Part shown: one piece after another, positions 3,270 to 28,269 of the stretch
Layout of the letters: the number at the start of each line of letters is the position of its first letter
How positions within the stretch are numbered: position 1 is the stretch's first letter
Sequence record: SRR31156797_613
DNA: 64,000 nucleotides
Direction: 5' to 3' (one strand)
The notes under the pieces: generated by a model
Told to the model about the DNA's origin: nothing
The model's input: the letters and a program-made list of their open reading frames with translations, nothing else
Databases searched by the model: none
Program-made: the position numbers and the translations under genes

Positions 3270-3390
3270 GTTAAGGTATTTCATGTCAAAAAGGAATGGT
3301 TTTCTTAACCGTTTGCGTCCAGTAGAATTAAATATGTAAGGTAGTCTTGCCTTACTAATAGTTTATATTTACACGAACAAGGAGGAATTT

Positions 3391-5157
3391 ATGAGAAATA
3401 GGAAAAGAATTTCTATTTTAGCTGCAATGATGTTAGCTATCATTAGCTTACTTACATTGCCAGTTCATGCTGAAGAAGAAGCAGCAACAGCTTACTTAAC
3501 CTTTGCTGACGAAGCATGGGGATTGGAGTATTGGTTTGACGGCAACGACTATGCACCTGTTGTAGCAACAACTCAGGAAGTAACGAGCTACGGAGAGTAT
3601 ACTGTAGGTCTGGACTTCACAGGTACTGATGCAGGTTTCGCTACAGGAATAGCATTCATGGATGTTGAAGTATCAAATGGTGAAAGTTTGTATCCAGATA
3701 GCTATATGTCTATCGATTCACTAAAGATTAATGGTGAAGAAGTGGAACTAGGCAAAACTTATACATCATCTGATGATGGTAAAGCCACTAGAACAAACCT
3801 ATATAACGAGTGGGTTTCAGAAATAGTTGAAGGTCGTACTGCTGATGGTGATACTGCTGATATTACAGCCGTACCACTAGACAAATCAGACATTATAGAA
3901 ATCAAAACTATTGAAGTAACATTCACATTATCTGAAGGTGTTGCATTTGCAGCTGAAGCAGAAGCAGAAGCTCAAGAATTACCTGAAGAGGGAACAACAG
4001 CATACATTTCTATGGCTGATAATACATGGGCATATAAATACGTTTTCGACGGTAATGACTATTCACCAGTCGTAGCAAACAACGCAACAGTAACAGGATA
4101 TGGTGAGTATACAGTATCTCTTGATTTCACAGGTGTAGACGTTGGCTCATGTCCTGATTTAGTATTCATGGACGTTGAAGTAAAAGGCGGAGAGCTATAT
4201 TTCCCAAATTGCTACATGCAGATTGATTCAGTTAAGATCAACGGTGAAGAAGCTGAAGTAGGCAATACATATACAAGCTCTGATAATGCAGAAGATACAA
4301 GAACAAATCTATATAACACATGGGTTACAGAAATTGCTGAAGGTCGTACAAATGGATTAGAGCTTACAGATGTATCTGCAGTACCTGTTGACGGAGCCTC
4401 ATACACAGAAATAGAAACTGTAGAAGTTACATTTACTTTAGTTGAAGGCGAAACACCTGCTGCAACTGAAGAAGAAGAATATGTAATGCCAACAGAATTT
4501 AACGCATTCATGATGTTCAGTGACGTAAGCGGTGCTTGGGAAACATATGCACCAGGTGTATCAGGCGATACTACAGTAATCGGCGACGGTAAATATGAAG
4601 TATACGTAAAAGCTGAAGATATCGGAGCTACTGGTCAAGCAACTGAAGGTCAAGTTTTCTTAGTTGATATCGAAGAGCTAGGCAGAGCTATGGTTGAATT
4701 AGGCACACTAAGTGAAGCTGATGATGAAAGTCTGACAGTTACTGATGCAGAAGCAACTGTTGAAGTTTACGTTGACGGCGAAAAAGTATATGCAAAGAAC
4801 AACAATATCTTAATGGGTGATATTGAAGGCAATGGCAGACTACGTCTTGAATTATACAACACTTGGGGCACTGGCACTGCTGATAACCCAGTAGTAATGC
4901 CTGACGTATTGACACCAGCAGAAGAAATCAAAGTAGTATTCACATTAGTTGGTACAGGTCTGAATACTGGTGCTGTTATCGAAGAAGAATCTGAACCAGA
5001 GGAAACTGCTGCTGAAGAAACAGTAACTGAAGAAGTTAAAGCAGTTACTGAAGAAGGCGGACTATCCACTACAGCTCTGATTATTATTGTAGTTGCAGCA
5101 ATCATAGTTATTGCAGGTATTTTATTACTAGTAACAAAGAAAAAAAAACAACAATAA
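3391..5157 (+). CDS. Secreted, C-terminally membrane-anchored protein with three tandem putative carbohydrate-binding modules
   Basis: Signal peptide ending VHA; two ~150-aa repeats offset by 170 aa plus a diverged third; C-terminal TM helix + KKKKQQ; repeats match the GH5 C-terminal module. Confidence 0.75.
   Translation: MRNRKRISILAAMMLAIISLLTLPVHAEEEAATAYLTFADEAWGLEYWFDGNDYAPVVATTQEVTSYGEYTVGLDFTGTDAGFATGIAFMDVEVSNGESLYPDSYMSIDSLKINGEEVELGKTYTSSDDGKATRTNLYNEWVSEIVEGRTADGDTADITAVPLDKSDIIEIKTIEVTFTLSEGVAFAAEAEAEAQELPEEGTTAYISMADNTWAYKYVFDGNDYSPVVANNATVTGYGEYTVSLDFTGVDVGSCPDLVFMDVEVKGGELYFPNCYMQIDSVKINGEEAEVGNTYTSSDNAEDTRTNLYNTWVTEIAEGRTNGLELTDVSAVPVDGASYTEIETVEVTFTLVEGETPAATEEEEYVMPTEFNAFMMFSDVSGAWETYAPGVSGDTTVIGDGKYEVYVKAEDIGATGQATEGQVFLVDIEELGRAMVELGTLSEADDESLTVTDAEATVEVYVDGEKVYAKNNNILMGDIEGNGRLRLELYNTWGTGTADNPVVMPDVLTPAEEIKVVFTLVGTGLNTGAVIEEESEPEETAAEETVTEEVKAVTEEGGLSTTALIIIVVAAIIVIAGILLLVTKKKKQQ
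3487..4947 (+). repeat. Intragenic domain repeats (3487-3930, 3997-4440, diverged 4501-4947)
   Basis: Shared FDGNDY.PVVA, YGEYTV.LDFTG, FMDVEV..GE, YTSSD...TRTNLYN.WV, EVTFTL; third copy keeps G.Y.V, R.ELYNTW, VVFTL. Confidence 0.85.
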
Positions 5158-5174
5158 AATCTAATAATTAACAT

Positions 5175-5212
5175 AATGGATGAGGCAGACGTTAAGGTTT
5201 GCCTTGTCCGTT
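5175..5212 (+). other. Intergenic stem-loop without U-tract (possible mRNA stabiliser or partial terminator)
   Basis: 16-bp stem AATGGATGAGGCAGAC / GTTTGCCTTGTCCGTT with 4 G-U pairs, followed by CAACAAA. Confidence 0.6.
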
Positions 5213-5345
5213 CAACAAATTTCAATTACAAAAAGTAGAATGACTAGAGTTAAATATTACATTTCTTGGTTTTGATTATTACAACAGATAAAACAAGTAA
5301 ATGTTATATTTGTATTTTTACAGCAATAGATTTGGGAGAATTACG

Positions 5346-6794
5346 ATGATACAAAATCGTTCAAATAAAATAGTCAAACAAGGTATGGAATATATCATCC
5401 GCATAGGAGCACTGCTTTTATCAGCTATGATGTTCTTCCCCGGTATTAATCCGTCCAGAATTAATGGCTATATTAATAAAACAATGTCGCTTTTCACTTC
5501 TGCAGTTTCATATTCGAGCTTAACACAGGAAGCCGGACGTGCTATAAGGAAAGGTTGGATATCCGAAAGTTCTTTTACAATTGTCTTTATAGCCAGCATA
5601 ATACTCTGCATAGGTATAGCTCTGGCAGCTGCAGGCGGCAGTATTTCATTGGGAAACTTAAGGCTAAAAAATTTGGCAAATAAATTCACTTTATTTGGAA
5701 GTATAGTACAACTAACCGGATTAGCAGGTATTTATATAGCATACCAGCAGGTAAATGCCACAGAATATCCTGATAGAGTATTACCGCAATTTTCTTCCGG
5801 TTATTATTGGTTCTTTATTATAGCTGTTGTAATGCTGGTGATATCATTGATTCAAATGACAATTACACCAAAAGCTTCTAAGGATATGCCATACGAAATA
5901 GATAGAAAATACAGACTATTTCTTATGTTTCTACCCTTTGCAGCTCTAATATTTGTTTTCTCTTATCTTCCGCTATGGGGTTGGAGATATGCTTTCTTCA
6001 ACTACAAAGCAGGCGGAACTTTGTCTGCGGATAACTTTGTAGGATTTAAATGGTTTACATATTTATTTCAGAATGAAGCAACCCGTCAGGATATAGTAAG
6101 AGTATTAAGAAATACACTAGCAATGAGCGGTCTGGGTATCGCTGTAAGCTGGCTGCCTATGATATTTGCTGTCTTTCTGGCAGAAGCAAAAAGCGCAAGG
6201 TTCAAGAGATTTGTTCAAGTGTTTACAACCATACCGAATTTCATCAGTTGGGTTTTAGTCTATGCATTAGCTTTGGCTATGTTTTCTACCGATGGTTTTG
6301 TAAACAGTATAATGATAAATTTTGGATTAACCAGCGAAGCTAAGAATTATCTGATGGGTGATTCATTTGTATGGTTAAAGATGCTGGCGTGGGGTATGTG
6401 GAAAGGATTAGGATGGAGTGCCATTATATACATTGCATCAATTTCAGGTATTGACCCACAATTATATGAAGCTGCAACAGTAGATGGAGCAGGTCGCTTC
6501 CAAAAGATGCGATATATAACATTCCCATCTCTAATGCCTACATACTTTGTATTGCTCGTGTTATCCATTGCAGCTGTATTAAGCAATGGAATGGATCAAT
6601 ACTTAGTATTTGAAAATGCTACAAATACTTCAGTAATCACTGTTCTGGATTTATATGTTTATCAATTAGGTATACAAAATGGAGTTATCCCATTATCTAC
6701 AGTTGTGGGTATGATGAAGTCTGTGATTAGTATCGTACTGCTGTTCATCGGTAACAGAATGTCTAAAATAGTACGCGGCGAAAGCATAGTTTAG
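5346..6794 (+). CDS. Carbohydrate ABC transporter permease (LplB-like) with extra N-terminal membrane domain
   Basis: EAA loop LYEAATVDGAGRFQ, PNFISWV; ~185-aa hydrophobic N-terminal extension; ATG 5346 after GGGAG. Confidence 0.88.
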   Translation: MIQNRSNKIVKQGMEYIIRIGALLLSAMMFFPGINPSRINGYINKTMSLFTSAVSYSSLTQEAGRAIRKGWISESSFTIVFIASIILCIGIALAAAGGSISLGNLRLKNLANKFTLFGSIVQLTGLAGIYIAYQQVNATEYPDRVLPQFSSGYYWFFIIAVVMLVISLIQMTITPKASKDMPYEIDRKYRLFLMFLPFAALIFVFSYLPLWGWRYAFFNYKAGGTLSADNFVGFKWFTYLFQNEATRQDIVRVLRNTLAMSGLGIAVSWLPMIFAVFLAEAKSARFKRFVQVFTTIPNFISWVLVYALALAMFSTDGFVNSIMINFGLTSEAKNYLMGDSFVWLKMLAWGMWKGLGWSAIIYIASISGIDPQLYEAATVDGAGRFQKMRYITFPSLMPTYFVLLVLSIAAVLSNGMDQYLVFENATNTSVITVLDLYVYQLGIQNGVIPLSTVVGMMKSVISIVLLFIGNRMSKIVRGESIV

Positions 6795-6806: not shown

Positions 6807-7718
6807 ATGAAAAATAGAAAATTTAAATCAAAAGTTAAACCTGGTGAAGTCATATTTGATATCATAAACTATACAGTATTTGCAATATTCACATTGAGTT
6901 GTCTGTTTCCATTTTATTATCTGTTTATAAATACTATTTCTGATAATGAATTGGTTCAAAGAGGATTAATTAACTTTATACCTAGAGGACTACAATTCAA
7001 AAACTATGTATCACTTACAAGTGTTAATGATTTAGGCACATCCTTTATGGTATCAGTAGGAAGAACTGTTATAGGTACTGCAATAATGGTAGTGGCATCT
7101 GCATTCGTTGGATATATAGTTACAAAAAAAGAGATGTGGGCGAGACAGTTCTGGTATCGTTTTGTAATCATTACAATGTATTTCAATGCTGGGTTGATTC
7201 CTTGGTATCTGAATATGTCTATGCTTGGCTTAACAAATAACTTCCTGGCATACATCGTTCCAACAATAATTGCACCCTTTAATATAATCTTGGTAAAAAC
7301 ATATATAGAATCTATACCAGATGAAATTGAGGAGAGCGCATTCATTGACGGTGCTGGATATATGCTCATATTCAGAAGAATTATCTGGCCGCTAAGTAAA
7401 CCAATATTGGCTACTATCGCCATTTTTGGTGCTGTAGGACACTGGAATTCATTTACAGATTCACTGATACTTATGCAGAATGCACCGCATTTATATACAA
7501 TTCAACACAGACTATATAACTACTTGAACAGCACAAACAATTTAGCTGCAATGATGCAGTCAGGTAGTGTATCTGCGGCAGCTGTTCAAAATGCACTAAA
7601 TACTAAAGTTATTAAATATACAATTTCTATGGTAACTATCATACCAATCCTTATGGTATATCCATTTATGCAAAAGTACTTTGAAAAAGGTATTATGCTA
7701 GGAGCGGTAAAGGGATAG
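6807..7718 (+). CDS. Carbohydrate ABC transporter permease (LplC/YtcP-like)
   Basis: IEESAFIDGAG, YPFMQKYFEKGIMLGAVKG C-terminus. Confidence 0.92.
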   Translation: MKNRKFKSKVKPGEVIFDIINYTVFAIFTLSCLFPFYYLFINTISDNELVQRGLINFIPRGLQFKNYVSLTSVNDLGTSFMVSVGRTVIGTAIMVVASAFVGYIVTKKEMWARQFWYRFVIITMYFNAGLIPWYLNMSMLGLTNNFLAYIVPTIIAPFNIILVKTYIESIPDEIEESAFIDGAGYMLIFRRIIWPLSKPILATIAIFGAVGHWNSFTDSLILMQNAPHLYTIQHRLYNYLNSTNNLAAMMQSGSVSAAAVQNALNTKVIKYTISMVTIIPILMVYPFMQKYFEKGIMLGAVKG

Positions 7719-7752: not shown

Positions 7753-9420
7753 ATGAAAAGAAGGATTTTGTTACTAGTTTTGGTCTTAGCTCTTATGACA
7801 ACAATGTTTACGGGCTGTGGTAAAAAGGAAGAGGAAGTAATTACCCTAACGGTATACAGCCAGTTAGCAAATTATTCAGGAGAACAAACGGGGTGGTTTG
7901 CACAGGAACTGCTGGAAAGATTTAATGTTAAGCTAATGATCGTACCAGAAGCAGATGGCGTTTACGACACCAGAATGGAATCTGGAAACCTTGGTGACCT
8001 AGTTGTTTGGGGAAATGATGGTGAAGAGTATATTGGAGCAGTAGACGCTGGACTACTATTTGATTGGAACGAAGATGGTTTGATAGATGAATATGGTTCA
8101 TATATCAAGGAAAATATGCCATATGCATTGGAGAAGAATATCGACATTTCCGATGGTACACTTTATGGATTTGGTCATAATGTTGCTACATCCAGTGAAG
8201 ACCATGATTCATTCTTCTATACTTGGGACTTACGCTGGGACTTATATAAGGAGTTAGGATATCCAGAAGTAAAAGATTTGGATGATTATGTAGAACTAAT
8301 GGCACAAATGAAGGAAATATGCCCAACTGATGATGCTGGTAATCCAACATATGCTGTTTCTCTATGGCCAGACTGGGACGGAAGCATGGTTATGTATGTA
8401 AAGGCAATGGCAACAGCATACTATGGCTACGATGAATTAGGCGTTGGTTTATATAATCCTGAAACAGGTGAATACTACGATGCATTATCAGCAGATGGTC
8501 CTTATATGGAAACATTAAAATTCTTTAATAATCTATATCAAAGAGATTTGTTAGACCCAGATTCAATGACTCAGACATGGGATGATGTTGATGCTAAAGT
8601 ACGTAATGGCGGTACATTCTTCTCAATTTTCAATTTTGCTGGTTACTTAACTTATAACACAGATGAGCATTTAGCTGAAAACAAGATGATGCTTACATTT
8701 ATGCCTGAAGAAGCTACTCCAATAGTATATGGTATGAATGTATACGGCAGTAACAGAATATGGTCAATAGGTGCAAAAACTCAATATCCTGAGCTATGTA
8801 TGGAAATCATTAACTGGTTATCAACACCTGAAGGCAGAATGGTATCAGAATATGGTCCTCAAGGTATATGCTGGGACTACGATGAAGATGGCTATACATA
8901 TGGTACAGAATTAGGTAAGTCAATGCGTAATGACAAAACTCTTGAATTCCCTGAAGATACCGGCTATTACGGACAATTCAAAGATGGTCAAAATCAGATG
9001 GTTAACGTTACTTGGTCTATTAACGCATCTAATCCTGATTCAAACGGTGAGCGCTATGATTGGGAGACATGGAAGAGCAATCAAACAGAACCTGTCAACG
9101 ATATAGAAGCTGACTGGAGAGAGTTCATGGGAGCTGATGATATTCAAGGATATCTTGATAGTCAAGAATATAAACTGGCTTTAGGTACTACCTACTCTGA
9201 AAGCAATAAAACAGACGAACTAAAAGTTGTTTGGGAACAAGTAATAAAAGCAATTGTAGACTATTCTTGGAAAGCAATCTATGCTAGCTCTGACGAAGAA
9301 TTTGATGCAATCGTTGATGAATTGACAGAAGTAGCTAACAGCTACGGTTACGACCAATGTGTTGAATGGTCACTTGGCGAAGCTACTACTAGAAAAGCTC
9401 TAGAGGACGCTGTAAGATAA
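7753..9420 (+). CDS. ABC transporter oligosaccharide-binding lipoprotein
   Basis: Lipobox MFTGC; LRWDLY, WL..PEG, GP.G..W motifs; follows permeases. Confidence 0.9.
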   Translation: MKRRILLLVLVLALMTTMFTGCGKKEEEVITLTVYSQLANYSGEQTGWFAQELLERFNVKLMIVPEADGVYDTRMESGNLGDLVVWGNDGEEYIGAVDAGLLFDWNEDGLIDEYGSYIKENMPYALEKNIDISDGTLYGFGHNVATSSEDHDSFFYTWDLRWDLYKELGYPEVKDLDDYVELMAQMKEICPTDDAGNPTYAVSLWPDWDGSMVMYVKAMATAYYGYDELGVGLYNPETGEYYDALSADGPYMETLKFFNNLYQRDLLDPDSMTQTWDDVDAKVRNGGTFFSIFNFAGYLTYNTDEHLAENKMMLTFMPEEATPIVYGMNVYGSNRIWSIGAKTQYPELCMEIINWLSTPEGRMVSEYGPQGICWDYDEDGYTYGTELGKSMRNDKTLEFPEDTGYYGQFKDGQNQMVNVTWSINASNPDSNGERYDWETWKSNQTEPVNDIEADWREFMGADDIQGYLDSQEYKLALGTTYSESNKTDELKVVWEQVIKAIVDYSWKAIYASSDEEFDAIVDELTEVANSYGYDQCVEWSLGEATTRKALEDAVR

Positions 9421-9515: not shown

Positions 9516-10136
9516 ATGAAGATTTTCAGCATAAACAGCCCACTATATAAATTTATGGTAAGATTCTGGGATATAGTAAAGCTAAACTTTTTTTGGCTCT
9601 TGTTTAGCCTGCCTGTAATTACCATTGGTGCATCAACTGTGGCAGCATATTCAGTCACTCTAAAGATGGCAGAAGATAAGGAAGGTCATGTAATAAAGCA
9701 ATTTATACAAGCTTTCAAAGAGAATTGGAAGCAGGGAATACCTCTGGGATTACTGGCATTAGCAGCTAGTTATTTTGTGTATCTAAATATGGAATTTTTC
9801 AATAAACTAAATGATAATCCTGTATTGTTCTTAATAGCTGCTATAATCATTACATTTTTAGGATTGATTTATTTAACATATGCTTTTGCAATAAGTGCAA
9901 GATATCACAATACTCTGATTAATACACTGAAAAATTCAGCAGCCATTTCCTTTAAATATTTTGGCAGAACATTATTGTTATGGATAATTATCGCAGTTAT
10001 CATCGTATTGTTTATGTTTAACTACACTTTGATGTTTTTGGGTATTCTCATAGGCCCAGTATGTATATTCTTAACAGTGAGCGGATTTGCTGTTTATTTC
10101 TTCAAAGAGATAGATAAAGAAAACAAAAGCAATTAG
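9516..10136 (+). CDS. YesL/DUF624 family membrane protein
   Basis: LN..WL..SLP.ITIGAST.A motif, F..AFKENWKQ, multiple TMs; typical sugar-ABC neighbour. Confidence 0.88.
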   Translation: MKIFSINSPLYKFMVRFWDIVKLNFFWLLFSLPVITIGASTVAAYSVTLKMAEDKEGHVIKQFIQAFKENWKQGIPLGLLALAASYFVYLNMEFFNKLNDNPVLFLIAAIIITFLGLIYLTYAFAISARYHNTLINTLKNSAAISFKYFGRTLLLWIIIAVIIVLFMFNYTLMFLGILIGPVCIFLTVSGFAVYFFKEIDKENKSN

Positions 10137-10160
10137 TATGATGTATTTTAATTAAAAAAG

Positions 10161-10187
10161 AAGTACTTACTTAATCAGTAAGTGCTT
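10161..10187. terminator. Probable terminator between convergent genes
   Basis: AAGTACTTACT-TAATC-AGTAAGTGCTT hairpin. Confidence 0.55.
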
Positions 10188-10203
10188 AATATTTATCATT
10201 TCA

Positions 10204-11967
10204 TTATTTCGCAGGTCCATATTCAAACGTAACAGTCATGGTCTCTATCAGACCCAAAGTATCCGAATCCAATATCGTTGCTGACAAGTACGGCTTCATT
10301 TTGGCGTTTTCACAACGTGCTTCCTCTGGGATTTCAGTCACCCATTCATTATATAAATTTACACGAGTACATATAGCATCATCAGCTGTTGTATATGGAA
10401 TTCCTGTCATAGCATAGTCCTCGTTATTTATTTTTATCTCTTTTATAGTGATTAAATAGTCAGGGAAGAGTAGCTCACCATTTGATATACCAATTGCTGC
10501 AAATGCTGTACTATCAGCATAACCAGCCTCCGTACCGGTGAAGTCCAGTCCCACCGTGTATGTGCCAGCTTCTTCGATTTTTACATCTGTTGCCTTGATT
10601 CCTTCTGTCGTAAGAGATGTATCATACAGGTCGCCAACGCTGTATGTTGCATTATAATCAATACTATTAAACATAATCCAAGCTATAGCATCTTCATCAC
10701 CTGCCAATGTAGTTTCCTCTTTATTAGCATCATTTACAATTGCTGCGTCTATAGAATCAGACATTGATTGTCTGGCATTCTCTTTTATCTCCTCTTGAGT
10801 TAATGACGATTGAGCTGATAAGCTTCTATAAAGAAATAAATCTGACAGACTCTCATCTACTATCTTTAGTTCAGATTTGATAAAGAAACTATTAGTATCC
10901 CAAAGCATAGGAACATAACCGTATAAATCACAATTATCTAGGAAATTGCTCATATAATCTACAGTATTATTTTTAATAGTACCGTCATTTTTTGTAAGAA
11001 CAGCGTATTCACCAAATACAATACCATAGCCTTGGTCAGTAAATTTGGTCATCATCTTAAGCAAATCGTTCATAGTGTTATAATGCTTCTCCGTGCCCCA
11101 GCTGGCAACCCCTGAAGTTCCACAATATGACCAAGGTGTATAATAATGAACAGACAGCAGTAATTTATCTTCTACAGTGTCTATTGGCATTATAAATCTT
11201 TCATCACATGTTCTTTCAATATCAGTATTATAACCTGCAATCAGTAGGAAACGATTAGCATTCATACCTCCTGTACTTCGAACAGTGTCTACAAATGCCT
11301 GATTAATAACGTTATTCATTTCATAGCATTCATCCTCTGACAGCGTACCAGAATCCCTAGCTATATCTTTATCATTTAGTCTGCTTCCCAGTTCTTCATT
11401 TGCACCTTCAAATATTAGTTTGTGGGAATAATCCTTGAATCTTTCTGACAACTGAGTCCACATAGAAACATATAATTCCATTGCATTCTCTCTGGTTTCA
11501 GGGTCTGCAGAGCCAAACATACCCCACCAGCCGCCATCCCAGTGATCGTTAAAGATTACATACATATCTGCATCCAATGCGTAGTTTACTATCTCCTCTA
11601 CCCTGTCTAAATAGCTTTCCGCAATAGTATAATCACCATTTTCATAATCCATTGTATTAGTCCATGCTACCGGTATCCTGATAGAATCAAAGCCTGCTTC
11701 TTTCATTGCCATAATCATCTCTGGCGTAGTAACAGGCTGCTTCCATATTGTTTCATAACTAGATACATCTGCATCAATACCTATTTCACTATGACCATAT
11801 GCTTCCATTGTATTTCCAAGGTTGATACCGTTACCCATCATATCAGCCAGCTCCAGCGATGTCACATCACTTAGATCATCACCTTTCTTTGAATTTGCGC
11901 ATCCAGACAATACTGCTGCAGAAATTATCATAATTATTACACTAACTAAAAAACGTCTATATTTCAT
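10204..11967 (-). CDS. GH5 endo-beta-1,4-glucanase/xyloglucanase lipoprotein (GH5_4-like) with C-terminal putative CBM
   Basis: Lipobox VLSGC; GINLGNT, RIPVAW, NDHWD, NE acid/base (GANEE), HYY, FGEY nucleophile, WD; ~160-aa C-terminal module. Confidence 0.9.
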   Translation of the reverse strand: MKYRRFLVSVIIMIISAAVLSGCANSKKGDDLSDVTSLELADMMGNGINLGNTMEAYGHSEIGIDADVSSYETIWKQPVTTPEMIMAMKEAGFDSIRIPVAWTNTMDYENGDYTIAESYLDRVEEIVNYALDADMYVIFNDHWDGGWWGMFGSADPETRENAMELYVSMWTQLSERFKDYSHKLIFEGANEELGSRLNDKDIARDSGTLSEDECYEMNNVINQAFVDTVRSTGGMNANRFLLIAGYNTDIERTCDERFIMPIDTVEDKLLLSVHYYTPWSYCGTSGVASWGTEKHYNTMNDLLKMMTKFTDQGYGIVFGEYAVLTKNDGTIKNNTVDYMSNFLDNCDLYGYVPMLWDTNSFFIKSELKIVDESLSDLFLYRSLSAQSSLTQEEIKENARQSMSDSIDAAIVNDANKEETTLAGDEDAIAWIMFNSIDYNATYSVGDLYDTSLTTEGIKATDVKIEEAGTYTVGLDFTGTEAGYADSTAFAAIGISNGELLFPDYLITIKEIKINNEDYAMTGIPYTTADDAICTRVNLYNEWVTEIPEEARCENAKMKPYLSATILDSDTLGLIETMTVTFEYGPAK

Positions 11968-12085
11968 ACATCAATCTCCTTCTTTAAATATGAATAAAGT
12001 GTGCCCAAATGTTGAACACACTAAATAGTTTACAGTATTACTTCCTTTAGCATAACCTAAAAAATGCTAGTAGATATATAGTACT

Positions 12086-13120: not shown

Positions 13121-13792
13121 TTACAATAATTTTCTGATAATAGGTTCCATATATGACGCAACAAAGGTAGTTCCCTTATCATTTAGGTGAAGTCCGTCAT
13201 CCAGATACATACTGTCAATTTCACTGTCTTCTAATTGCATGAATGCCTCAAGCAGGTCAATACATTCGATTCCATCATATCTTTTTAAAATTTCTTTATA
13301 GTATGGAACCAGCATGTCCATATATTTTTGCTGATGTTTACGCCATATGCATTTACGCACAGGAATTGGTATACATACAACGATTTGGGCTTTGGGATGA
13401 TTAGCTATTACATCATCTATTATCCTAGTGTAATCTTTAATAAACTTCTCATGATGCTCAATTAAATTATTGTATTTATCCTGAACAGGCAATACATCAT
13501 CCATCCCATCCTGAGCATCGTTTGTTCCCAGATTAATTGTAAAAATCTGTCCGTCAATATCCAGTGCTTCTTTATATTTCTTTGTACTGACATATGGCAA
13601 ACCCAAGATTCTGCCGTCCATAGTTGTATTTATAACGCAGGAGCCGCTAACCCCTTTATTATGAACCAGTACATTGCTTCCAAGTAATATATTAAGTTTA
13701 TAAGGATAGCTTTGTTCTTTGGAATCTAATCCGAACCCTTCAGTATTGCTATCGCCCATTGCTACTATTTGTATTTTTGTATCACTTTTCAT
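13121..13792 (-). CDS. SGNH/GDSL esterase, probable oligosaccharide acetylesterase
   Basis: GDSNT, GVSG, LGTND, DGLH blocks; no signal peptide; overlaps GH95 stop. Confidence 0.88.
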   Translation of the reverse strand: MKSDTKIQIVAMGDSNTEGFGLDSKEQSYPYKLNILLGSNVLVHNKGVSGSCVINTTMDGRILGLPYVSTKKYKEALDIDGQIFTINLGTNDAQDGMDDVLPVQDKYNNLIEHHEKFIKDYTRIIDDVIANHPKAQIVVCIPIPVRKCIWRKHQQKYMDMLVPYYKEILKRYDGIECIDLLEAFMQLEDSEIDSMYLDDGLHLNDKGTTFVASYMEPIIRKLL

Positions 13793-16046
13793 GTATAACT
13801 TCTTCTCTGCTTTCCTCTAAATGTATGGATAATCTATTTCCGTTTATAAGTATTTCTACATCCTGTTTATCTGGAGATATGAAACTTGCTTTCTGAACTT
13901 CATTATTTTCCCACCATATGGATACCTGAATATTATTACGTGCTTTAAGCCCCGTAATATACCCCTTATCCCATTTATCAGGCAAAGCTGGGAGTAAACG
14001 CAATATACCTTCATGGCTTTGCAGAAGCATCTCAGCTATTCCTGCAGTTCCTCCTAAATTGCCGTCAATTTGAAAAGGAGGATGCATGTCAAAAAGGTTA
14101 TCAGCAGTAGAATGATTTAGAAGTGCTTCAATATTCTTAATAGCTTTATTACCGTCATGCAGTCTGGCATAGAAATTAATTATCCAGGCTCTAGACCAAC
14201 CTGTATGTCCTCCTCCTGATTCAAGCCTCTCCTGCAATGTAATCTTCGCAGCCTCAAAGAGCTCTGGAGTATTAGATTCTGTAATTGTATCTCCGGGATG
14301 AAGCCCATATAGATGCGATACATGTCTATGCCCTTTTTCCCATTCTTTATATTCTTTCTGCCATTCTAATATCTGTCCTCTTGAGCCTAATTTTTCCTTT
14401 GGCAAATCTATTATCATTTCTTTTATTTTGCTAACTACATAGTTATCTTCATTTAATTCTTTAGAAATTTCCAAAAAACCACTCCACAAGTGGTAAATAA
14501 TCTGACTGTCCATAGTAGGACCATAGCATAAGACTCCCATTTCACCATTATCAAGCAAATACGTATTCTCTGGTGAGACAGAAGGACATGTAACCCAGTT
14601 ATTATCTTCATCTTTTATCAAGTAATCTACAAGGAACAATGAGGCTCCCTTTAATAACTCATATTTTTCTTGTATAAAAGTGTAATCTCTATTAAATCTA
14701 AAATGTTCAATAATATGAGTTGCAAGCCACGCCATACCAACTGGCCATATTGTTGCAGGCATCCATTGATCCTGCGGAGCACAATCACCATAAATATCAG
14801 TATTATGATGAGCAGTGATACCTCTGCAGCCATACATTTTTGATGCTGTTTCACTTCCTTGTGGTTTCATTCTTTCAAGGTGGTCAAATAATGGAATATT
14901 ACATTCACTTAAGTTGGTAACATCAGCAAGCCAGTAATTCATCTCAGTATTAATATTAATAGTATACTTGCATCCCCACGGCGGCTGCATATCTTTGCTC
15001 CATATTCCCTGCAGATTAGCAGGCAGTGCTCCCTCTCTGCTGCAGGAAATCAACAAATAGCGTCCATAATTAAAATACAGTTCGATTAAGCCTATATCCT
15101 TGCAATCATTTTTATAGGTTTTAAGCCTTACATCTGTTGGTAAATTAGAACAATCTATATCCCCATTCAAGTCAATGTCCACCCTATTGTACAAAGCCGA
15201 ATAATCATAAATATGAGCAGATAGCAGCTGCTCGTATGTTTTTTCTGATGCTTTATCTAATGTTTCCTGACACCATTTTTCAGGGTCATGATTATAGTAA
15301 TCGGTAGAGCCTGTAACTAAAATTATCGCTTCTTCTGCGTTAGATACATTTATAGCTGATCCTGCGCAAGCTATATTGCCATCCTTACATATCACTTTTG
15401 CTGCAGATACAAAGAGACTTCCTCCTCCTCCAGCTATGCCGCTTAATGTAATTGTATCTTCTTTTGCATATATGCTTTCACACATATCTCCCCTATCTAG
15501 TTCAACCCTAAAGGATAGCTTGCGTTCGCCTTTAGCTTTTAGTTTAATGACCATTACTCTATCAGGATAAGAAATAAACATTTCTCTAGAATAGGCAGTA
15601 TTATCGCAATCGTATGTACATTCATACACGCTTTTATCAAGATGTAGTTTACGAGAATAATTAGTGTAATTTTTATTTAGTTCTTTGTTCATTTGACTAT
15701 GATGCAGAATTTTCTTATCAAAAGATATTAATAAGTCTGCTAATGGTTCATAATGTCCCTGAGAATATGGAGTTCCGAACATTTTTGTAAAGGCAAGTTC
15801 TTCCGCCTTGACTAGCTCTCCATCAAAAATCGCCTTTCTGATATCATCAATTGCATTTTTTGCATATGGGTTAATTCTATTTCTCTTGCCTCCGTACCAT
15901 ACAGATTCCTGATTTAGTTTAATAACTTCTTTACTTACGCCACCGTATACCATAGCTCCAAGGAATCCATTACCCAATGGTAGTGCTTCTTCCCAAATAT
16001 CAGGATTTGCAGGTTTGTTGTAATATAATTTTTTATTTTCACTCAT
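13782..16046 (-). CDS. GH95 alpha-1,2-L-fucosidase
   Basis: ALPLGNG.LGAM, YGRYLLISCSR, NLQGIW, NINTEMNYW, HRHVSHL, FQIDGN; ATG 16046 after AGGTGA. Confidence 0.93.
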   Translation of the reverse strand: MSENKKLYYNKPANPDIWEEALPLGNGFLGAMVYGGVSKEVIKLNQESVWYGGKRNRINPYAKNAIDDIRKAIFDGELVKAEELAFTKMFGTPYSQGHYEPLADLLISFDKKILHHSQMNKELNKNYTNYSRKLHLDKSVYECTYDCDNTAYSREMFISYPDRVMVIKLKAKGERKLSFRVELDRGDMCESIYAKEDTITLSGIAGGGGSLFVSAAKVICKDGNIACAGSAINVSNAEEAIILVTGSTDYYNHDPEKWCQETLDKASEKTYEQLLSAHIYDYSALYNRVDIDLNGDIDCSNLPTDVRLKTYKNDCKDIGLIELYFNYGRYLLISCSREGALPANLQGIWSKDMQPPWGCKYTININTEMNYWLADVTNLSECNIPLFDHLERMKPQGSETASKMYGCRGITAHHNTDIYGDCAPQDQWMPATIWPVGMAWLATHIIEHFRFNRDYTFIQEKYELLKGASLFLVDYLIKDEDNNWVTCPSVSPENTYLLDNGEMGVLCYGPTMDSQIIYHLWSGFLEISKELNEDNYVVSKIKEMIIDLPKEKLGSRGQILEWQKEYKEWEKGHRHVSHLYGLHPGDTITESNTPELFEAAKITLQERLESGGGHTGWSRAWIINFYARLHDGNKAIKNIEALLNHSTADNLFDMHPPFQIDGNLGGTAGIAEMLLQSHEGILRLLPALPDKWDKGYITGLKARNNIQVSIWWENNEVQKASFISPDKQDVEILINGNRLSIHLEESREEVIHEK

Positions 16047-16458
16047 TAATACTTTCACCTATTCGTTTCTTAATCCTAATTTAATTCAAGTTATTAAATT
16101 AGTCAATTTATAAATTAGATATAAATAACATATCAAATTATACGTTACATGTGAAATGATAGCAAATGCTTACTAATACTTTTATAAATCAACATAATAT
16201 GCAATAATGTGTATTAACAAACTACTATTAAATGTAATTGTAGTATTTAAATAAATAATAGAACGTGTTATACTTATGACGAAGAAGGATAATACTAAAA
16301 ATAATTCAATTTGCATATAGCAGATACTTATCTAGTTGACTGCTTATAATATTACTTATTTTCATTCTTCTTTTTAGAAAACCTTTTTTGCTAGTATTAA
16401 CTGATGCAAAAATTATCTGATTTTAGATTATATTTTATTGCTCTAGGGATATTATATT

Positions 16459-21825: not shown

Positions 21826-24135
21826 ATGAAATTTACTAATGGAGCATGGCTCATGAAAAAAGGCGTGAAAGGATACTATGCATCCGAATTGCGCAGCTCA
21901 CAGATAAGCGATAAGCAAGTCATTGTTTATGCACCATTTCAAGCTATAAGGCACAGAGGGTATACCCTTACAGGACCCTTGTTCACAATTTCTTTTACAT
22001 CTCCAGCAAAAGATGTAATAAAGGTCAAGCTAGTTCACTTTAAGCAAAAGCAACAAAAACCTCAAAATCAATTATTCGAATCTAATTTACCTCTAGAAGT
22101 TTCAGAAAATGATGAGCATTTAGATATCCATGCAAATAAAACTATGGTTCGTATCCATAAAAAAGAATGGAAAATAGAATACTACTATCAGGGTAAGCTA
22201 CTAACATACACAGGTTTCAGGGGACTTGGTATGATGGAAGTAGATGAAACTCAAAAGTATATTTGTGAAAATCTCAATATGTCTGTTGGTGAAAAGATAT
22301 ATGGATTAGGAGAGCGTTTCACTAATTATATTAAAAACGGACAAACAGTTGATATCTGGAACGAGGATGGCGGTACAGGAACTGAGCAGTCATATAAAAA
22401 TATCCCATTTTATCTGTCCTCAAACGGGTATGGATTATTAGTTAATGACACTAGAAAAATCAGCTTTGAAATAGGCTCAGAAAAGGTATCAAAGATTCAG
22501 TTTTCCGTTCCAGGTAATGAATTAGAATATATTATATTCCCGGGAGATACTCCAAAGCAAATAATATCAAAATATACGGCACTTACAGGAATGCCTCCAA
22601 TGCTGCCAGCTTGGAGCTTTGGGCTGTGGCTGACTACCTCCTTTACCACTGATTATGATGAAGAAACCGTTACATCTTTTATCGACGGTATGGCTGAGAG
22701 GGATTTACCACTGCATACATTCCACTTTGACTGCTTCTGGATGAAAGAATATGAGTGGTGTAACTTCACATGGGATGAAGATGTATTCCCTGACCCTGTA
22801 GGTATGATAAAACGGCTAAAGGATAAGGGGCTGCATATCTGTGTTTGGATTAACCCATACATTGGTCAAAAGTCTCCTTTATATGATGAAGGGCTGGAAA
22901 ACGATTATTTTATTCATAATACAGACGGTACTACATGGCAATGGGATTTATGGCAGCCAGGTATGGCAATAGTAGATTTTACAAATCCTGATGCCTGTAA
23001 ATGGTATGAAAGCAAACTGAAGGCATTAATGGATATGGGCGTAGACTGCTTCAAGACAGATTTCGGTGAAAGAATACCAACAGAAAATGTGAAGTACTTT
23101 GATGGTTCAGATCCCAACAAAATGCATAACTACTACTCTTATCTATATAATAAGATAGTATATAATCTGTTAGAGAGAAATCTAGGCAAAGGAAATGCTG
23201 TTCTGTTTGCTCGTTCAGGTTATGTAGGTTCTCAGCAGTTCCCAGTACACTGGGGCGGTGACTGTACATCAGTATTTGAATCTATGGCTGAAAGCTTACG
23301 AGGAGGACTAAGCCTGTGTATGTCCGGTTTCGGATTCTGGAGCCATGACATAGGTGGATTCGAAAGCACATCTACTGCTGATGTATACAAGAGATGGATT
23401 GCTTTTGGTTTGATGTCATCACACTCCAGACTTCACGGCTCAAGCTCTTACAGAGTTCCTTGGCTGTATGATGAGGAAAGCGTTGATGTGCTTCGTCATT
23501 TTACAAAGCTGAAATGCTCATTGATGCCATATTTATATAGTCAATCTATAAAGACTTCTATGACAGGTATTCCAATGATGAGAGCTATGTTCCTAGAGCA
23601 TCCAAAAGATTTAGTTTGTCAAACTCTGGATATGCAATATTACCTTGGGGATTCATTGATAGTTGCTCCTATCCTGAACAAAGAAGGAAGCTGTGAGTAT
23701 TATCTGCCAAAAGGAGAATTTACTCACCAGATGACTAATGAAGAAAAATCCGGTGAAAAATATTACAGAGAGTGCTTTGATTACTTTAGTATGCCTCTAT
23801 ATGTTAAGCCAAACACAATATTACCTATAGGTGCAGTAGATACGCGCCCAGATTACGATTACTTGGAAAATATAACATACCATATTTTCAAGCTGGATAA
23901 TGCTACAACTATAGAATTACCATTATATAATATTGAGAACAATGAAGAAGAAACTATTCAATTGGTTAAAGAAGATAACGAAATCATTATAAATCGAAAA
24001 TCTTCTAAGAAAGCAACTGTTGTATTAAGAAATATTGATGAAATAAAGAGTGCCAATGTTTCGTACACTGTTACAAGCTTAGGTATTGAATTATCTTTTG
24101 ATACACAAGTAAAAGAAATGATAATACAATTGTAG
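21826..24135 (+). CDS. yicI: GH31 alpha-xylosidase
   Basis: MKFTNG.W N-terminus, FHFDCFWMK, CFKTDFGERIP nucleophile, HWGGD, HSRLHGS. Confidence 0.92.
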   Translation: MKFTNGAWLMKKGVKGYYASELRSSQISDKQVIVYAPFQAIRHRGYTLTGPLFTISFTSPAKDVIKVKLVHFKQKQQKPQNQLFESNLPLEVSENDEHLDIHANKTMVRIHKKEWKIEYYYQGKLLTYTGFRGLGMMEVDETQKYICENLNMSVGEKIYGLGERFTNYIKNGQTVDIWNEDGGTGTEQSYKNIPFYLSSNGYGLLVNDTRKISFEIGSEKVSKIQFSVPGNELEYIIFPGDTPKQIISKYTALTGMPPMLPAWSFGLWLTTSFTTDYDEETVTSFIDGMAERDLPLHTFHFDCFWMKEYEWCNFTWDEDVFPDPVGMIKRLKDKGLHICVWINPYIGQKSPLYDEGLENDYFIHNTDGTTWQWDLWQPGMAIVDFTNPDACKWYESKLKALMDMGVDCFKTDFGERIPTENVKYFDGSDPNKMHNYYSYLYNKIVYNLLERNLGKGNAVLFARSGYVGSQQFPVHWGGDCTSVFESMAESLRGGLSLCMSGFGFWSHDIGGFESTSTADVYKRWIAFGLMSSHSRLHGSSSYRVPWLYDEESVDVLRHFTKLKCSLMPYLYSQSIKTSMTGIPMMRAMFLEHPKDLVCQTLDMQYYLGDSLIVAPILNKEGSCEYYLPKGEFTHQMTNEEKSGEKYYRECFDYFSMPLYVKPNTILPIGAVDTRPDYDYLENITYHIFKLDNATTIELPLYNIENNEEETIQLVKEDNEIIINRKSSKKATVVLRNIDEIKSANVSYTVTSLGIELSFDTQVKEMIIQL

Positions 24136-24144
24136 GAGAAATAA

Positions 24145-26196
24145 ATGCTTACAGATATGCAAATAAAAGACCTTTTAGCTAATATAAACCTAGAAGAAAA
24201 GATTGGTATGCTTCATGGAGACGGCATTTTCCAAACAAAGGGGATTAAGAGACTTAATATACCGCCTTTGGTAATGTCCGATGGTCCTATGGGAGTTCGC
24301 CGTGAATTTCATAAGAAGTCTTGGCAGCTAAAGAACACATCAGATGATTCTGTATCATATTTTCTTTCTAACACTGCACTAGCTGCAACTTGGAATGAGG
24401 AGCACGCATATGCTTTTGGTAATGCATTAGGTGCAGAAGCACGAAGCAGAGGTAAAGATGTTATTCTGGCACCAGGCATAAATATTATCAGGAGCCCTCT
24501 GTGCGGTCGTAATTTTGAATACATGAGCGAAGACCCATATTTGATAAAGAAAATGGCAGTTCCTATTATAAAGGGTATTCAGGAAAACGATGTTGCTGCG
24601 TGTGTTAAGCATTTTACAGCAAACAATCAGGAAACTGACAGACTCTTTGTAAATGTTATTGCTGATGAACGCTGCCTAGAGGAAATCTACTTCCCTGGTT
24701 TTGAAGCAGCTATTAATGAAGGACAAAGCTATACAATTATGGCTGCGTATAATAAGCTCAATGGCGATTATTGCTGCGAAAGTGATGAATTGCTGAATCA
24801 AATTCTGCGTGACAGATGGAATTATGATGGTATAGTAATATCCGACTGGGGTGCATGTCATTCCACCGAAAAAGCTGCTCTAGCTGGTATGGACATTGAA
24901 ATGGCTGTAACTTTGGATTTCGACCAATATTTTTTTGCTGACAATCTATACAAGATGGTAGACGAAGGTAAAATTGATATCAAAATCATTGACAACAAAG
25001 TACTTCGTATACTAAAAACAATGAATAAACTCAATATGCTGGACGGCACACGTCAAAAAGGCAGCAGAAACACTCCAGAGCATCAGCTGGGTATACTAAA
25101 GGCTGCTGAAGAGAGTATTGTACTTCTTAAAAATGAAGATAACATTCTTCCACTAGATAATACCATAAAGTCAATTGCCATAATTGGTGAAAATGCTGTC
25201 CGCACACATTCTAACGGTGGCGGCAGTGCAGAGATAAAAGCTCTGTACGAGCATACTCCCCTATCCGGCATCAGTATGTACTTAGGCGGTAATGCAAAGC
25301 TGACATACGCTAGCGGCTACACTAGTGACAAGGATGCTGACGACCTAAAGCGTTTCACTCTGCGGGATGAAGCATCAAGAATTGCTTCGGCTCACGATAT
25401 TGTAATCTTCGTCGGTGGATTAAATCACGATTTTGATACAGAGGAGAAAGACCGTACTGATTATAAACTACCATATGAACAAGATGAGCTGATAAAATCT
25501 CTTGCACAAGTTAATCATAACCTTGTCTGTGTCAATTTAAGCGGTTCAGCTGTTGACCTTAGTACAATGTCTGAGTATAGCAAAGGAGTAATTCAGACTT
25601 GGTACAATGGTATGGAGGGCGGACGAGCTCTGGCAAACATACTATTTGGAGAAGTGAACCCATCAGGAAAACTGCCATTTACCTTTGCTAAGGAACTAGA
25701 ACACTATGCGGCTCACTCAATTGGTGAATTTCATGGCGGCAGTGATGTGGTGTATAAGGATTCAATATACGTGGGATATCGCCACTTTGACAGTCGTAAT
25801 ATTGAAACGTTATATCCATTTGGATACGGTCTGAGCTATACTGATTTTGAGTATAGCAATCTACAGGTTACTATTGGTGAAAAAGAAGTTTTAGTAGATT
25901 TTGATATCACAAATACAGGAGACTATAACGGTAAGGAAACTGCACAATTATATGTACGAGATATTGTATCATCAGTTGACAGACCTAATAAAGAACTAAA
26001 AGCATTTAAGAAAGTAAACCTGAAAAAGGAAGAGAGCACAAATATCACATTCACATTATCCTGTGACAGCTTCTCCTTCTATAGTGAAGATAAGAAAACA
26101 TGGGTAATGGAAGCAGGAGAGTTTGAAATAATGATTGCTGCTTCCAGTGAAGATATAAAATTGAGAGAGACAATAAATATAAACAGTCTAGTATAG
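24145..26196 (+). CDS. GH3 beta-glucosidase, cytoplasmic
   Basis: SDGPMGVR, GRNFEY, CVKH, ISDW nucleophile, PSGKLP, FGYGLSY, FnIII tail; no signal peptide. Confidence 0.92.
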   Translation: MLTDMQIKDLLANINLEEKIGMLHGDGIFQTKGIKRLNIPPLVMSDGPMGVRREFHKKSWQLKNTSDDSVSYFLSNTALAATWNEEHAYAFGNALGAEARSRGKDVILAPGINIIRSPLCGRNFEYMSEDPYLIKKMAVPIIKGIQENDVAACVKHFTANNQETDRLFVNVIADERCLEEIYFPGFEAAINEGQSYTIMAAYNKLNGDYCCESDELLNQILRDRWNYDGIVISDWGACHSTEKAALAGMDIEMAVTLDFDQYFFADNLYKMVDEGKIDIKIIDNKVLRILKTMNKLNMLDGTRQKGSRNTPEHQLGILKAAEESIVLLKNEDNILPLDNTIKSIAIIGENAVRTHSNGGGSAEIKALYEHTPLSGISMYLGGNAKLTYASGYTSDKDADDLKRFTLRDEASRIASAHDIVIFVGGLNHDFDTEEKDRTDYKLPYEQDELIKSLAQVNHNLVCVNLSGSAVDLSTMSEYSKGVIQTWYNGMEGGRALANILFGEVNPSGKLPFTFAKELEHYAAHSIGEFHGGSDVVYKDSIYVGYRHFDSRNIETLYPFGYGLSYTDFEYSNLQVTIGEKEVLVDFDITNTGDYNGKETAQLYVRDIVSSVDRPNKELKAFKKVNLKKEESTNITFTLSCDSFSFYSEDKKTWVMEAGEFEIMIAASSEDIKLRETININSLV

Positions 26197-26217
26197 ATAT
26201 GAAAGGTAGCAAAGTAT

Positions 26218-28269
26218 ATGAATTTCGGTTCTATTAATCCTAAGTTAAAATCAATGATTCATGGCGGAGATTACAATCCTGAGCAGTGGATAGACTATGA
26301 AGGAATTTGGGATGAAGATTTCAAGCTAATGAACATAGCTAATTGCAATGTAATGACTATTGGTGTGTTTTCATGGTCCATGTTAGAGCCTGAAGAAGGA
26401 AAGTTTGACTTCAGCTGGATGGACGAGATAATGGACAAATTGGCAGCAGAGAATAAATTCGCTGTCCTTGCTACCCCCAGCGGAGCAAGGCCTGTATGGC
26501 TGGCTCAAAAATACCCTGAGGTAATAAGAACAAATGAAGATAGAAGCAAAAGACTATACGGCGGCAGACATAATCACTGCTTCACTTCACCTTTGTATAG
26601 AGAAAAAACCAGATTGATAAACAAGAAACTGGCACTAAGGTACAAAGATCACCCTGCACTTTTGGTATGGCATATTTCTAATGAATTCAGCGGTGAGTGC
26701 CATTGCGATTTATGTCAGAATGCTTTTCGTGATTGGTTGAAAGTAAAATATGATAATGATCTCAATAAGCTAAACCATGTATGGTGGAGCAGTTTTTGGA
26801 GTCACAAATATACCGACTGGTCACAGATAGAGTCTCCATCTTCAAATGGTGAAAATGAATCTCATGGACTGACATTGGATTGGAAGCGATTTGTAACATA
26901 TCAGACAAAGAGTTTTATGGACAATGAAATAGAGCCTTTAAAGCAAATTACCCCGGAAATACCTATCACCACTAACTTTATGCGTATGTTTATGGCACTT
27001 GACTACTGGAAGCTGGCGAAATCTCTTGATGTAATATCATGGGACAGCTATCCTAATTGGCATAAATACGATAATGAAGCTTATGAAGCAATGCAGATTG
27101 CCTTTATGCACGATATTACACGGAGCCTAAAAGGTGGAAAGCCATTTATGCTGATGGAGAGCACACCCAGCACTACAAACTGGCAAGGTGTTTCTAAGCT
27201 GAAACGGCCAAAAATGCATATGCTATCGTCAATGCAGGCTGTTGCACATGGTTCAGATACTGTACAGTACTTCCAGTGGAGAAAGAGCAGAGGCTCATTT
27301 GAGAAATTCCACGGAGCTGTAGTTGATCACTGTGGTCATGAAAATACTAGGGTTTTCAGAGACGTATCTCAATTAGGAAATGCATTAACCAAGCTGGATG
27401 AGGTTGTAGGTACTAGTGTAAAACCAGAAGTAGCTATTATATACGATTGGGAGAATTACTGGGCTATTGAAGAAATGAAGGGTATTAACAATAGTGCGAA
27501 AAAATATATTGAAACTGCTCTTAGTCATTACAAACCATTCTGGGAAAGCGGTGTACCTGTAGATATCATAGACATGGAACAGCCTCTTGACCAATACAAG
27601 GTAGTTATAGCACCTATGCTTTATATGCTAAAACCTGGTACAGCACAAAGAATAAAGTCTTTCGTAAAATCAGGCGGTACTCTTGTAACAACATATGTAT
27701 CTGGAATTACTAATGAGAATGATTTATGCTTCCTTGGAGGCTTTCCTGGACCATTACAAGAAGTATTGGGCATTTGGGTAGAGGAAACTGATGGGTTGTA
27801 TCCTAATGATATTAATCATGTGAATATTGCCATAGACGGTAATAATAAAATGTATGATGCAAAGGAGATATGCGATATAATGCATCTGGAAAGTGCGGAA
27901 GCACTTGGACATTATACAGATGATTTCTACGCTGATTTCCCTGCCGTAAGTGTAAATAAATATGGCGATGGTAAAGCATATTACATAGCGTTCAGAAATA
28001 ATGGTGATTTTGAAATAGACTTCTATAATCAATTAATCAGTAAAGAAAATTTAAAAAGAATCTTAGATACCGAAATACCAAAGGGAGTCTCCGTACAAAC
28101 AAGATATGATGATGATAATAGATTTGTTTTCGTTATGAACTTTAATGATGAAAAAAAGGAAATCAACTTAGGAGATTCGAAATATCTAGATATAATAAAT
28201 GATGAGAATATTGAAAATAAATTAGTATTGCAGGGCTATGATGTAAAAGTGCTAAAGCTGGTTAACTAA
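26218..28269 (+). CDS. GH42 beta-galactosidase
   Basis: GGDYNPEQW, WHISNE, CHC..C, LMES, FQWRKSR..EKFHG. Confidence 0.94.
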   Translation: MNFGSINPKLKSMIHGGDYNPEQWIDYEGIWDEDFKLMNIANCNVMTIGVFSWSMLEPEEGKFDFSWMDEIMDKLAAENKFAVLATPSGARPVWLAQKYPEVIRTNEDRSKRLYGGRHNHCFTSPLYREKTRLINKKLALRYKDHPALLVWHISNEFSGECHCDLCQNAFRDWLKVKYDNDLNKLNHVWWSSFWSHKYTDWSQIESPSSNGENESHGLTLDWKRFVTYQTKSFMDNEIEPLKQITPEIPITTNFMRMFMALDYWKLAKSLDVISWDSYPNWHKYDNEAYEAMQIAFMHDITRSLKGGKPFMLMESTPSTTNWQGVSKLKRPKMHMLSSMQAVAHGSDTVQYFQWRKSRGSFEKFHGAVVDHCGHENTRVFRDVSQLGNALTKLDEVVGTSVKPEVAIIYDWENYWAIEEMKGINNSAKKYIETALSHYKPFWESGVPVDIIDMEQPLDQYKVVIAPMLYMLKPGTAQRIKSFVKSGGTLVTTYVSGITNENDLCFLGGFPGPLQEVLGIWVEETDGLYPNDINHVNIAIDGNNKMYDAKEICDIMHLESAEALGHYTDDFYADFPAVSVNKYGDGKAYYIAFRNNGDFEIDFYNQLISKENLKRILDTEIPKGVSVQTRYDDDNRFVFVMNFNDEKKEINLGDSKYLDIINDENIENKLVLQGYDVKVLKLVN

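Follow-up and report, generated by a model that had tools for sequence, protein, structure and literature searches.

In a 64,000-nucleotide stretch of DNA from sequence record SRR31156797_613 (the window), the gene at 3391..5157 on the + strand stands first in an ATP-binding cassette (ABC) importer operon and most likely encodes a type-I membrane-anchored, non-catalytic cell-surface protein built from three beta-sandwich modules of an uncharacterised family. We suggest, with a probability of about 0.6, that this module protein binds beta-glucan or xyloglucan at the surface and feeds both a glycoside hydrolase family 5 (GH5) endoglucanase and the importer. Its architecture, the homology of its modules, their confidently predicted fold, the lack of a catalytic domain, GH5 as the sole catalytic fusion partner, the operon position and the substrate-type context are established; we infer carbohydrate binding and the ligand from the module's fusion partners and gene neighbours, and a cooperation with GH5 and importer besides. 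The modules would bind chains of beta-1,4-glucan, xyloglucan being the most likely, and keep the polymer at the membrane surface, where the lipid-anchored GH5 would cut it; a solute-binding protein (SBP1) and two permeases encoded directly downstream would import the oligosaccharides, and cytoplasmic GH31, GH3, GH42 and GH95 enzymes would trim them. Such a capture, cut and import arrangement would work without a cellulosome.

The module gene reads as a complete secreted protein of 588 residues. It is preceded by a strong ribosome-binding site (AAGGAGGA, 3379..3386, +) with the ATG 4 nucleotides further on, and the N-terminus reads as a Sec-type signal peptide (residues 1-27, 3391..3471, MRNRKRISILAAMMLAIISLLTLPVHA/EEE, ending LPVHA/EEE), with a hydrophobic segment at 7-25 and a modelled helix at 4-20 of low predicted local distance difference test score (pLDDT). 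Three modules follow: M1 (residues 30-190, 3478..3960), M2 (residues 196-360, 3976..4470) and the membrane-proximal, divergent M3 (residues 364-526, 4480..4968), which in the AlphaFold model carries an inserted helical segment. An acidic linker rich in E, T, A and V (residues 527-557, 4969..5061, pLDDT 46-64) leads to a predicted C-terminal membrane helix (residues ~558-581, 5062..5133, LSTTALIIIVVAAIIVIAGILLLV; hydropathy 3.61 at 563-581, modelled helix 560-587) and a putatively cytoplasmic basic tail, TKKKKQQ (5134..5154). A hydropathy scan finds hydrophobic segments at 7-25 and 563-581 only. A motif search finds no LPXTG in the tail, where a hydrophobic stretch and KKKK are present, and no NCBIfam sorting-domain model matches it; the signal peptide, ending VHA/EEE, contains no lipobox, and Pfam and NCBIfam scans find no catalytic domain in the protein. 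On the signal peptide, the acidic linker, the membrane segment with KKKK, the missing LPxTG and the missing catalytic domain, an earlier note made from the letters of the window had been right. Just before the C-terminal helix stands a G-[LMIV]-[SNP]-[STPA] motif (here GGLST, within 5050-5157, +), which recurs in 31 of the 52 helix-plus-basic tails found among the window protein (P0001) and its relatives P0002-P0121. An antisense open reading frame (ORF) of 152 residues with a low-complexity translation (4767-5225, -) overlaps the 3' end of the module gene; we take it to be a by-product of sense-strand composition.

The modules are related to one another and to the C-terminus of the GH5 enzyme encoded nearby. 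By BLASTP, M1 (~30-190) and M2 (~196-360) are 59% identical over 159 residues (E 3.5e-67), and the accessory module of about 170 residues at the GH5 C-terminus (residues ~416-587; 10207..10722, -; also recovered by a six-frame profile scan) is 45% identical to M1 (E 1e-30) and 40% identical to M2 (E 1e-23), making it a paralogue of both. M3 stands further off, with 25% identity to M2 (E 3.6e-4) and no significant BLASTP similarity to M1 or to the GH5 module. Profile-profile comparison with hhalign nevertheless pairs M3 with M1 at 96-98% probability (E 5e-13 and 3e-9) and with M2 at 95-97% (E 1e-11 and 3e-8), against 0.7% for a reversed control; together with the three beta-sandwich units predicted by AlphaFold, this indicates that M3 is a divergent copy of the module. 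It retains the R-x-x-L-Y-N-x-W part of the family motif and lacks the Y-T-S-S-D part. The earlier note's description of the protein as three copies of the GH5's accessory module thus holds for M1 and M2, and does not hold in that form for M3, which lacks YTSSD and has no significant BLASTP match to the GH5 module. A six-frame profile scan of the window finds no module copy beyond the module protein and the GH5. Across species, M1, M2 and the GH5-attached module each match their own positional orthologues first, with 55-78% identity within types versus 40-45% between them, which suggests that the stand-alone and enzyme-borne forms are old, separately conserved paralogues.

The fold is predicted with confidence and matches no named family. 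AlphaFold2, given 121 aligned sequences (the query and 120 relatives), models the whole protein as three beta-sandwich units at a mean pLDDT of 89.9, and M1 alone, from 42 sequences, at pLDDT 95.3 and a predicted template-modelling (TM) score of 0.89. Foldseek with the whole protein gave merely meaningless multi-domain alignments (TM ~0.1), and the single-module model was used instead; against the PDB it has no match at E <= 0.001 (best E 0.05) and a query-normalised TM-score of at most 0.33, an outcome that points to the absence of a close solved relative and does not in itself demonstrate a new fold. None of 42 single-module sequences matches any Pfam family at E <= 1, carbohydrate-binding module (CBM) models included, NCBIfam has no match for the module, and PDB sequences give no meaningful match for the protein or for the 42-sequence profile. 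A protein-language-model search returns unnamed clusters, and its sole named lead is CBM65 (score 0.76, in 15% of cluster members). This candidate was set aside: Pfam PF18259 (CBM65_1) matches 0 of the 42 sequences at E <= 1, the PDB profile search finds no CBM65, and no CBM65 entry is among the Foldseek PDB matches listed.

The module may therefore be a new CBM family, with the comparison covering CBM families that have a Pfam model or a solved structure. The earlier note had been unable to assign it to a named CBM family and had raised the possibility of a new one; since Pfam, NCBIfam, PDB sequences and PDB folds all return no match, that possibility survives the checks run. The module is also contiguous, is modelled as an independently folding unit and occurs within carbohydrate-active enzymes, namely the GH5 fusions, as a CBM in the CAZy sense does. 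Full-text literature searches, with subscription-only papers, CAZy pages and bioRxiv supplements outside their scope, returned no description of the module or of such a stand-alone protein. The protein would belong to an already known kind, the surface glycan-binding protein or CBM array; its module family is uncharacterised, and the conserved first-gene role in an ABC-importer operon is in none of the papers found.

The family is widespread and, in its enzyme fusions, selective. A word-seeded search scored 7999 candidates, of which 2103 proteins reached E <= 0.001, and an exhaustive profile search over 1.84 billion representatives gave 342 clusters (50% identity) at E <= 0.001 and 98 at E <= 1e-30; the 120 listed relatives are named 'hypothetical' or not at all, except for one that is called an LPXTG-anchored protein. 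By profile, 30, 44 and 47 of the 121 proteins (query included) carry two, three and four M1/M2-type modules, and the divergent M3-type module usually comes last. Fusion partners were sought with Pfam in 52 of 141 new representatives, chosen for long non-module stretches, short or fully module-covered proteins being left out. Cellulase (GH5) occurs in 14 of the 52 and no other catalytic family was found among them; the other partners are LRR_5, Flg_new, FIVAR, Big_2 and SH3_3, and about half carry nothing. A pattern with GH5 as the only catalytic partner is what a substrate-targeting module usually shows. In 528 unique modules, an aromatic and polar set (W43, Y70, F89, E98, N114, Y124, T125, S127, D128, T133, R134, N136, N139, W141, R149 and F178) is 81-97% conserved, and this constellation fits a candidate ligand site.

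Surface display appears to be kept by interchangeable means. Among the 121 proteins, 52 share the C-terminal helix and basic tail of the window protein and 5 carry LPXTG; a regular expression flags an N-terminal lipobox in 10 of the remaining 64, and on reading the N-termini, the cysteine stands where the signal peptide ends in 6 of these 10, the named ones among the six being Izemoplasmatales. These data bear on a reading in which the modules bind the cell's own wall polymers or are inert spacers that hold something off the membrane. Beta-sandwich repeats without recognisable function, and fusions to LRR_5, Flg_new and FIVAR surface proteins, would suit it. A spacer, however, would not keep the aromatic and polar set so strongly conserved across 528 modules, and its enzyme fusions would not be limited to GH5; moreover, relatives with N-terminal lipoboxes occur in metagenome-assembled genomes (MAGs) of Izemoplasmatales and Acholeplasmatales, which are wall-less lineages. 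We consider this reading very unlikely.

The module gene is a near-invariant first gene of the importer operon in xyloglucan-type loci of Clostridia and their relatives. We surveyed 60 loci in one scan with one genome per species; they come mostly from Lachnospiraceae MAGs, and also from Christensenellaceae, Vallitaleaceae, Mobilisporobacter, Acetivibrio, Eubacterium, Butyrivibrio, Roseburia, Natronincola, Izemoplasmatales and Acholeplasmatales (MAGs included). The relatives of the host organism are Bacillota. In 55 of the 60 loci, tblastn places the start of permease A no more than 2.6 kb downstream of a module match and on its strand, with a median gap of 415 nucleotides, which bears out the earlier placement of the gene at the head of an ABC operon. 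Four of the five exceptions (L037, L038, L053 and L055) are loci whose contig stops at or close to the match, and L011 continues with lepA. ORF calling finds permease A directly after 51 of 55 stand-alone module genes, but spurious long antisense ORFs masked real genes in L035, L049 and L050, so the tblastn count is the better figure. The genes usually run in the order module gene, permease A, permease B, solute-binding protein (SBP), DUF624 and often GH5. In L011 (a Roseburia MAG, 10001-13652), the one informative exception, GH29, GH42 and a kinase lie upstream of the module gene, and in L017 (2024-4600) the module gene seems split into two ORFs.

The earlier note had tied the function to co-occurrence with GH5, GH31 and ABC genes, and this co-occurrence is strong. 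In the 44 loci of at least 12 kb, GH5 is present in 33, GH31 in 19 and at least one of GH5, GH31, GH95 and GH3 in 38. Unassigned ORFs were clustered and 82 of them scanned in Pfam (30 stood for recurrent clusters, and 52 were long singletons); recurrent neighbours are an abhydrolase/BD-FAE esterase (13 loci), GH29 fucosidase (11), GH42 (7), GH43 (4) and GH2 (3), along with FGGY sugar kinases and fucose isomerase. A GH5 with the module occurs in 19 of the 60 loci, and 18 of these 19 also encode the stand-alone protein. This pairing could also be explained by docking, in which cohesin-like contacts between modules would let the stand-alone protein act as a scaffold that recruits the module-bearing GH5 to the surface. 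A multi-copy scaffold with a single-copy enzyme resembles scaffoldin and dockerin logic, and many relatives lack an anchor, as the idea would allow. However, the GH5 of the window is already lipid-anchored, 16 loci pair the multi-module protein with a GH5 that has no module, the conserved positions hold polar and aromatic residues (Y, W, D, N, R), a composition typical of sugar sites, and the remaining fusion partners are ordinary surface repeats rather than varied enzymes. Docking thus seems quite improbable to us; it and the envelope or spacer reading lose ground on account of the lipid-anchored GH5, the module-less GH5s in many loci and the lipid-anchored relatives in wall-less lineages.

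The main rival explanation is that the module protein is an accessory of the transporter: an extracellular subunit of the ABC importer that binds oligosaccharides, or docks SBP1 or the extended permease, passes substrate on to the transporter, and captures no polymer for GH5. The strongest conserved linkage is indeed to permease A, in the 55 loci that include the 16 with a module-less GH5. In the window, permease A (5301..6794, +, 497 residues, BPD_transp_1 at residues 289-485 by Pfam; the likelier start is the ATG at 5346, preceded by a GGGAGA site) has an N-terminal extension of about 190 residues with extra hydrophobic segments in the hydropathy scan, and this extension is conserved, with alignments to 53 of the 54 orthologues taken from the fetched loci (median length 485 residues) reaching residue 60 or earlier of the window protein. 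A divergent, membrane-proximal M3-type module ends the relatives examined, and the terminator scan finds no terminator-like site on the + strand between the module and permease genes, which weakly suggests that the two are co-transcribed. On the other side, the module is also found on GH5 endoglucanases, which act on polymers, the anchors vary between membrane helix, LPXTG, lipid and none, which argues against a fixed membrane-embedded contact, and contact with any transporter part appears in no tool result. A complex prediction of M3 (residues 362-530) with mature SBP1, run without alignments, scored 0.16 and 0.02 against a mark of 0.34 and speaks neither for nor against binding. We regard the accessory role as rather unlikely.

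The two ideas could also be combined. The module protein may be an extracellular partner dedicated to one special class of ABC importers, recognisable by the extended permease A, and so a Gram-positive counterpart of SusD/SGBP-SusC, where SGBP stands for surface glycan-binding protein; M1 and M2 would capture xyloglucan, and the M3 type would couple chains or oligosaccharides to the binding protein or the permease. With such coupling, it would make sense that even relatives without an anchor retain the place of the first gene. We offer this as a speculative possibility, and would not expect it to be the correct one.

Several observations weigh against the surface-capture reading that we prefer. 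It is the permease gene, and not GH5, to which the module gene is tightly linked, and a transporter-accessory role fits this as well as capture does. In the 16 loci with a module-less GH5 (L006-L010, L013, L023-L028, L031, L035 and L046-L048), the enzyme sits after DUF624 and is ~33% (31-35%) identical to the catalytic domain of the window GH5; it probably belongs to another GH5 subfamily, and in these loci the stand-alone protein may have a different ligand. In 6 of the 44 large loci, none of GH5, GH31, GH95 and GH3 lies within 10 kb. Together with the module-less GH5s, these loci suggest that the ligand may vary or be a broader beta-glucan. M3, lacking the YTSSD part of the conserved motif, may not bind sugar. 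Lastly, 54 of the 121 proteins have a signal peptide and no recognised anchor, so that surface anchoring is not a universal trait of the family.

The remaining genes of the window, GH5, GH95, GH31, GH3 and GH42 among them, give the locus its xyloglucan-type character. Downstream of permease A lie ABC permease B (6807..7718, +, Pfam), the lipoprotein solute-binding protein SBP1 (7753..9420, +), whose putative lipidated Cys22 is invariant in 44 orthologues and which has no Pfam match and was recognised by position and similarity to a second solute-binding protein, and a DUF624 membrane protein (9516..10136, +, Pfam). The GH5 gene (10204-11967, -) encodes a lipoprotein endoglucanase whose lipobox, LSGC with Cys22, agrees with the lipid anchor claimed for it; the catalytic domain lies at 10888..11769 (-; Pfam Cellulase, E 6e-44, residues 67-360). 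The best PDB sequence matches of this enzyme are 3zmr (E 6.5e-51), which we take to be GH5_4, 2jep ('xyloglucanase'), 4w84-4w89 ('xyloglucan-specific endo-beta-1,4-glucanase') and 6xsu ('GH5-4 broad specificity endoglucanase'). Between GH5 and GH95, an APH/fructosamine-kinase-like phosphotransferase and a GDSL esterase are encoded at 12137-13792 (-), and removal of acetyl groups from xyloglucan would fit the esterase. Pfam further identifies a GH95 alpha-fucosidase-type enzyme (13782..16058, -), the second solute-binding protein SBP2 (16459-18216, +), an AraC-type response regulator (18276-19817, -), a histidine kinase (19820-21562, -) and a putatively cytoplasmic oligosaccharide-trimming set of GH31, GH3 and GH42 (21826..28269, +). 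SBP2 is ~30% identical to SBP1 by tblastn and has no permeases of its own; its position beside the regulator and the kinase suggests a binding-protein-dependent sensor. The window thus holds the five hydrolase families, ABC permeases with a solute-binding protein and a histidine kinase with an AraC-type regulator, and all components of the three-component, one-locus definition given in the accessible portion of PMC13543919 are present.

Further from the module gene, a Fe-alcohol dehydrogenase, an FGGY kinase, a weak fucose-isomerase-like protein, a split transketolase and a LacI regulator are encoded at 52296-59835 (-), plausibly for the catabolism of a pentose or deoxy-sugar freed from the oligosaccharides. 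Two BlaR1-type M56 peptidase sensors (37917-40421 and 46364-49036, +), one of them with DUF6034, lie near a gene for an extracytoplasmic-function (ECF)-type sigma factor (41664-42236, -) and ABC/FtsX export genes; the sensors and these neighbours are unrelated to the module gene. A NifH/frxC-family gene (410-1246, -, Pfam E 1e-131) stands at the window edge.

Non-catalytic, multi-module surface glycan-binding proteins have precedent in Gram-positive bacteria in Sas6 and Sas20 of Ruminococcus bromii, which carry known starch-binding CBM families and dockerins and act in the amylosome. Unlike these, the module protein belongs to an unnamed module family, is predicted to be anchored by a membrane helix and is encoded at the head of an importer operon. 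A further parallel is with the SusE/F-type SGBPs of Bacteroidota, which are likewise non-catalytic, surface-tethered and made of tandem beta-sandwich units, have been proposed to hold polymer for cutting and import, and are encoded in a substrate-specific utilisation locus beside transporter genes and an endo-acting GH5, as in the system of B. ovatus described in the accessible portions of bioRxiv 10.64898/2025.12.13.694138 and PMC13543919. In contrast to these proteins, the anchor of the module protein would be a C-terminal helix in a single-membrane cell rather than an outer-membrane lipoprotein's, the partner is an ABC importer rather than SusC/SusD, and Pfam scans detect no sequence relationship. 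The module protein may thus be seen as a functional analogue that works like SusE/F-type SGBPs, and not as a member of their family. In their accessible portions, the same two sources, the first on Gram-positive xyloglucan import and the second a 2026 review on glycoside transporters, confine their treatment of surface glycan-binding proteins to Bacteroidota.

Two systems from Firmicutes resemble parts of the arrangement. CBM65, from Eubacterium cellulosolvens Cel5A and with distant homologues in Ruminococcus albus GH5s, is like our module a beta-sandwich appended to GH5 endoglucanases; its preferred ligand is xyloglucan, which it contacts with aromatic residues on a concave sheet (PMC3576085, PMC4954948). 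It differs in length, ~133 residues versus ~160, and the accessible portions of these two papers contain no description of stand-alone, multi-copy, anchored CBM65 proteins. The gene set of the window in turn matches the xyloglucan-oligosaccharide cluster of Ruminiclostridium cellulolyticum, which in the accessible portion of PMC4780118 comprises a two-component system whose regulator is of the AraC type, an ABC importer served by a lipoprotein binding protein, and a cytoplasmic complement of GH31, GH3, beta-galactosidase and alpha-fucosidase. Unlike the arrangement proposed here, that system relies on cellulosomal xyloglucanases, and the same portion of the paper makes no mention of a lipid-anchored GH5 or a multi-module surface protein, listing one 'gene of unknown function' in the legend of Figure 12.

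Overall, the earlier interpretation of the module protein as a Gram-positive glycan-capture protein is partly supported. Surface glycan capture is well worked out in Bacteroidota and hardly at all in Gram-positive fibre degraders that import oligosaccharides through ABC transporters, and the module family provides a concrete and widespread candidate for this step. Should binding prove true, the module would offer a new probe or fusion tag for xyloglucan, and finding the module gene along with the extended permease would point to xyloglucan use in Bacillota genomes more sharply than the enzymes do on their own.

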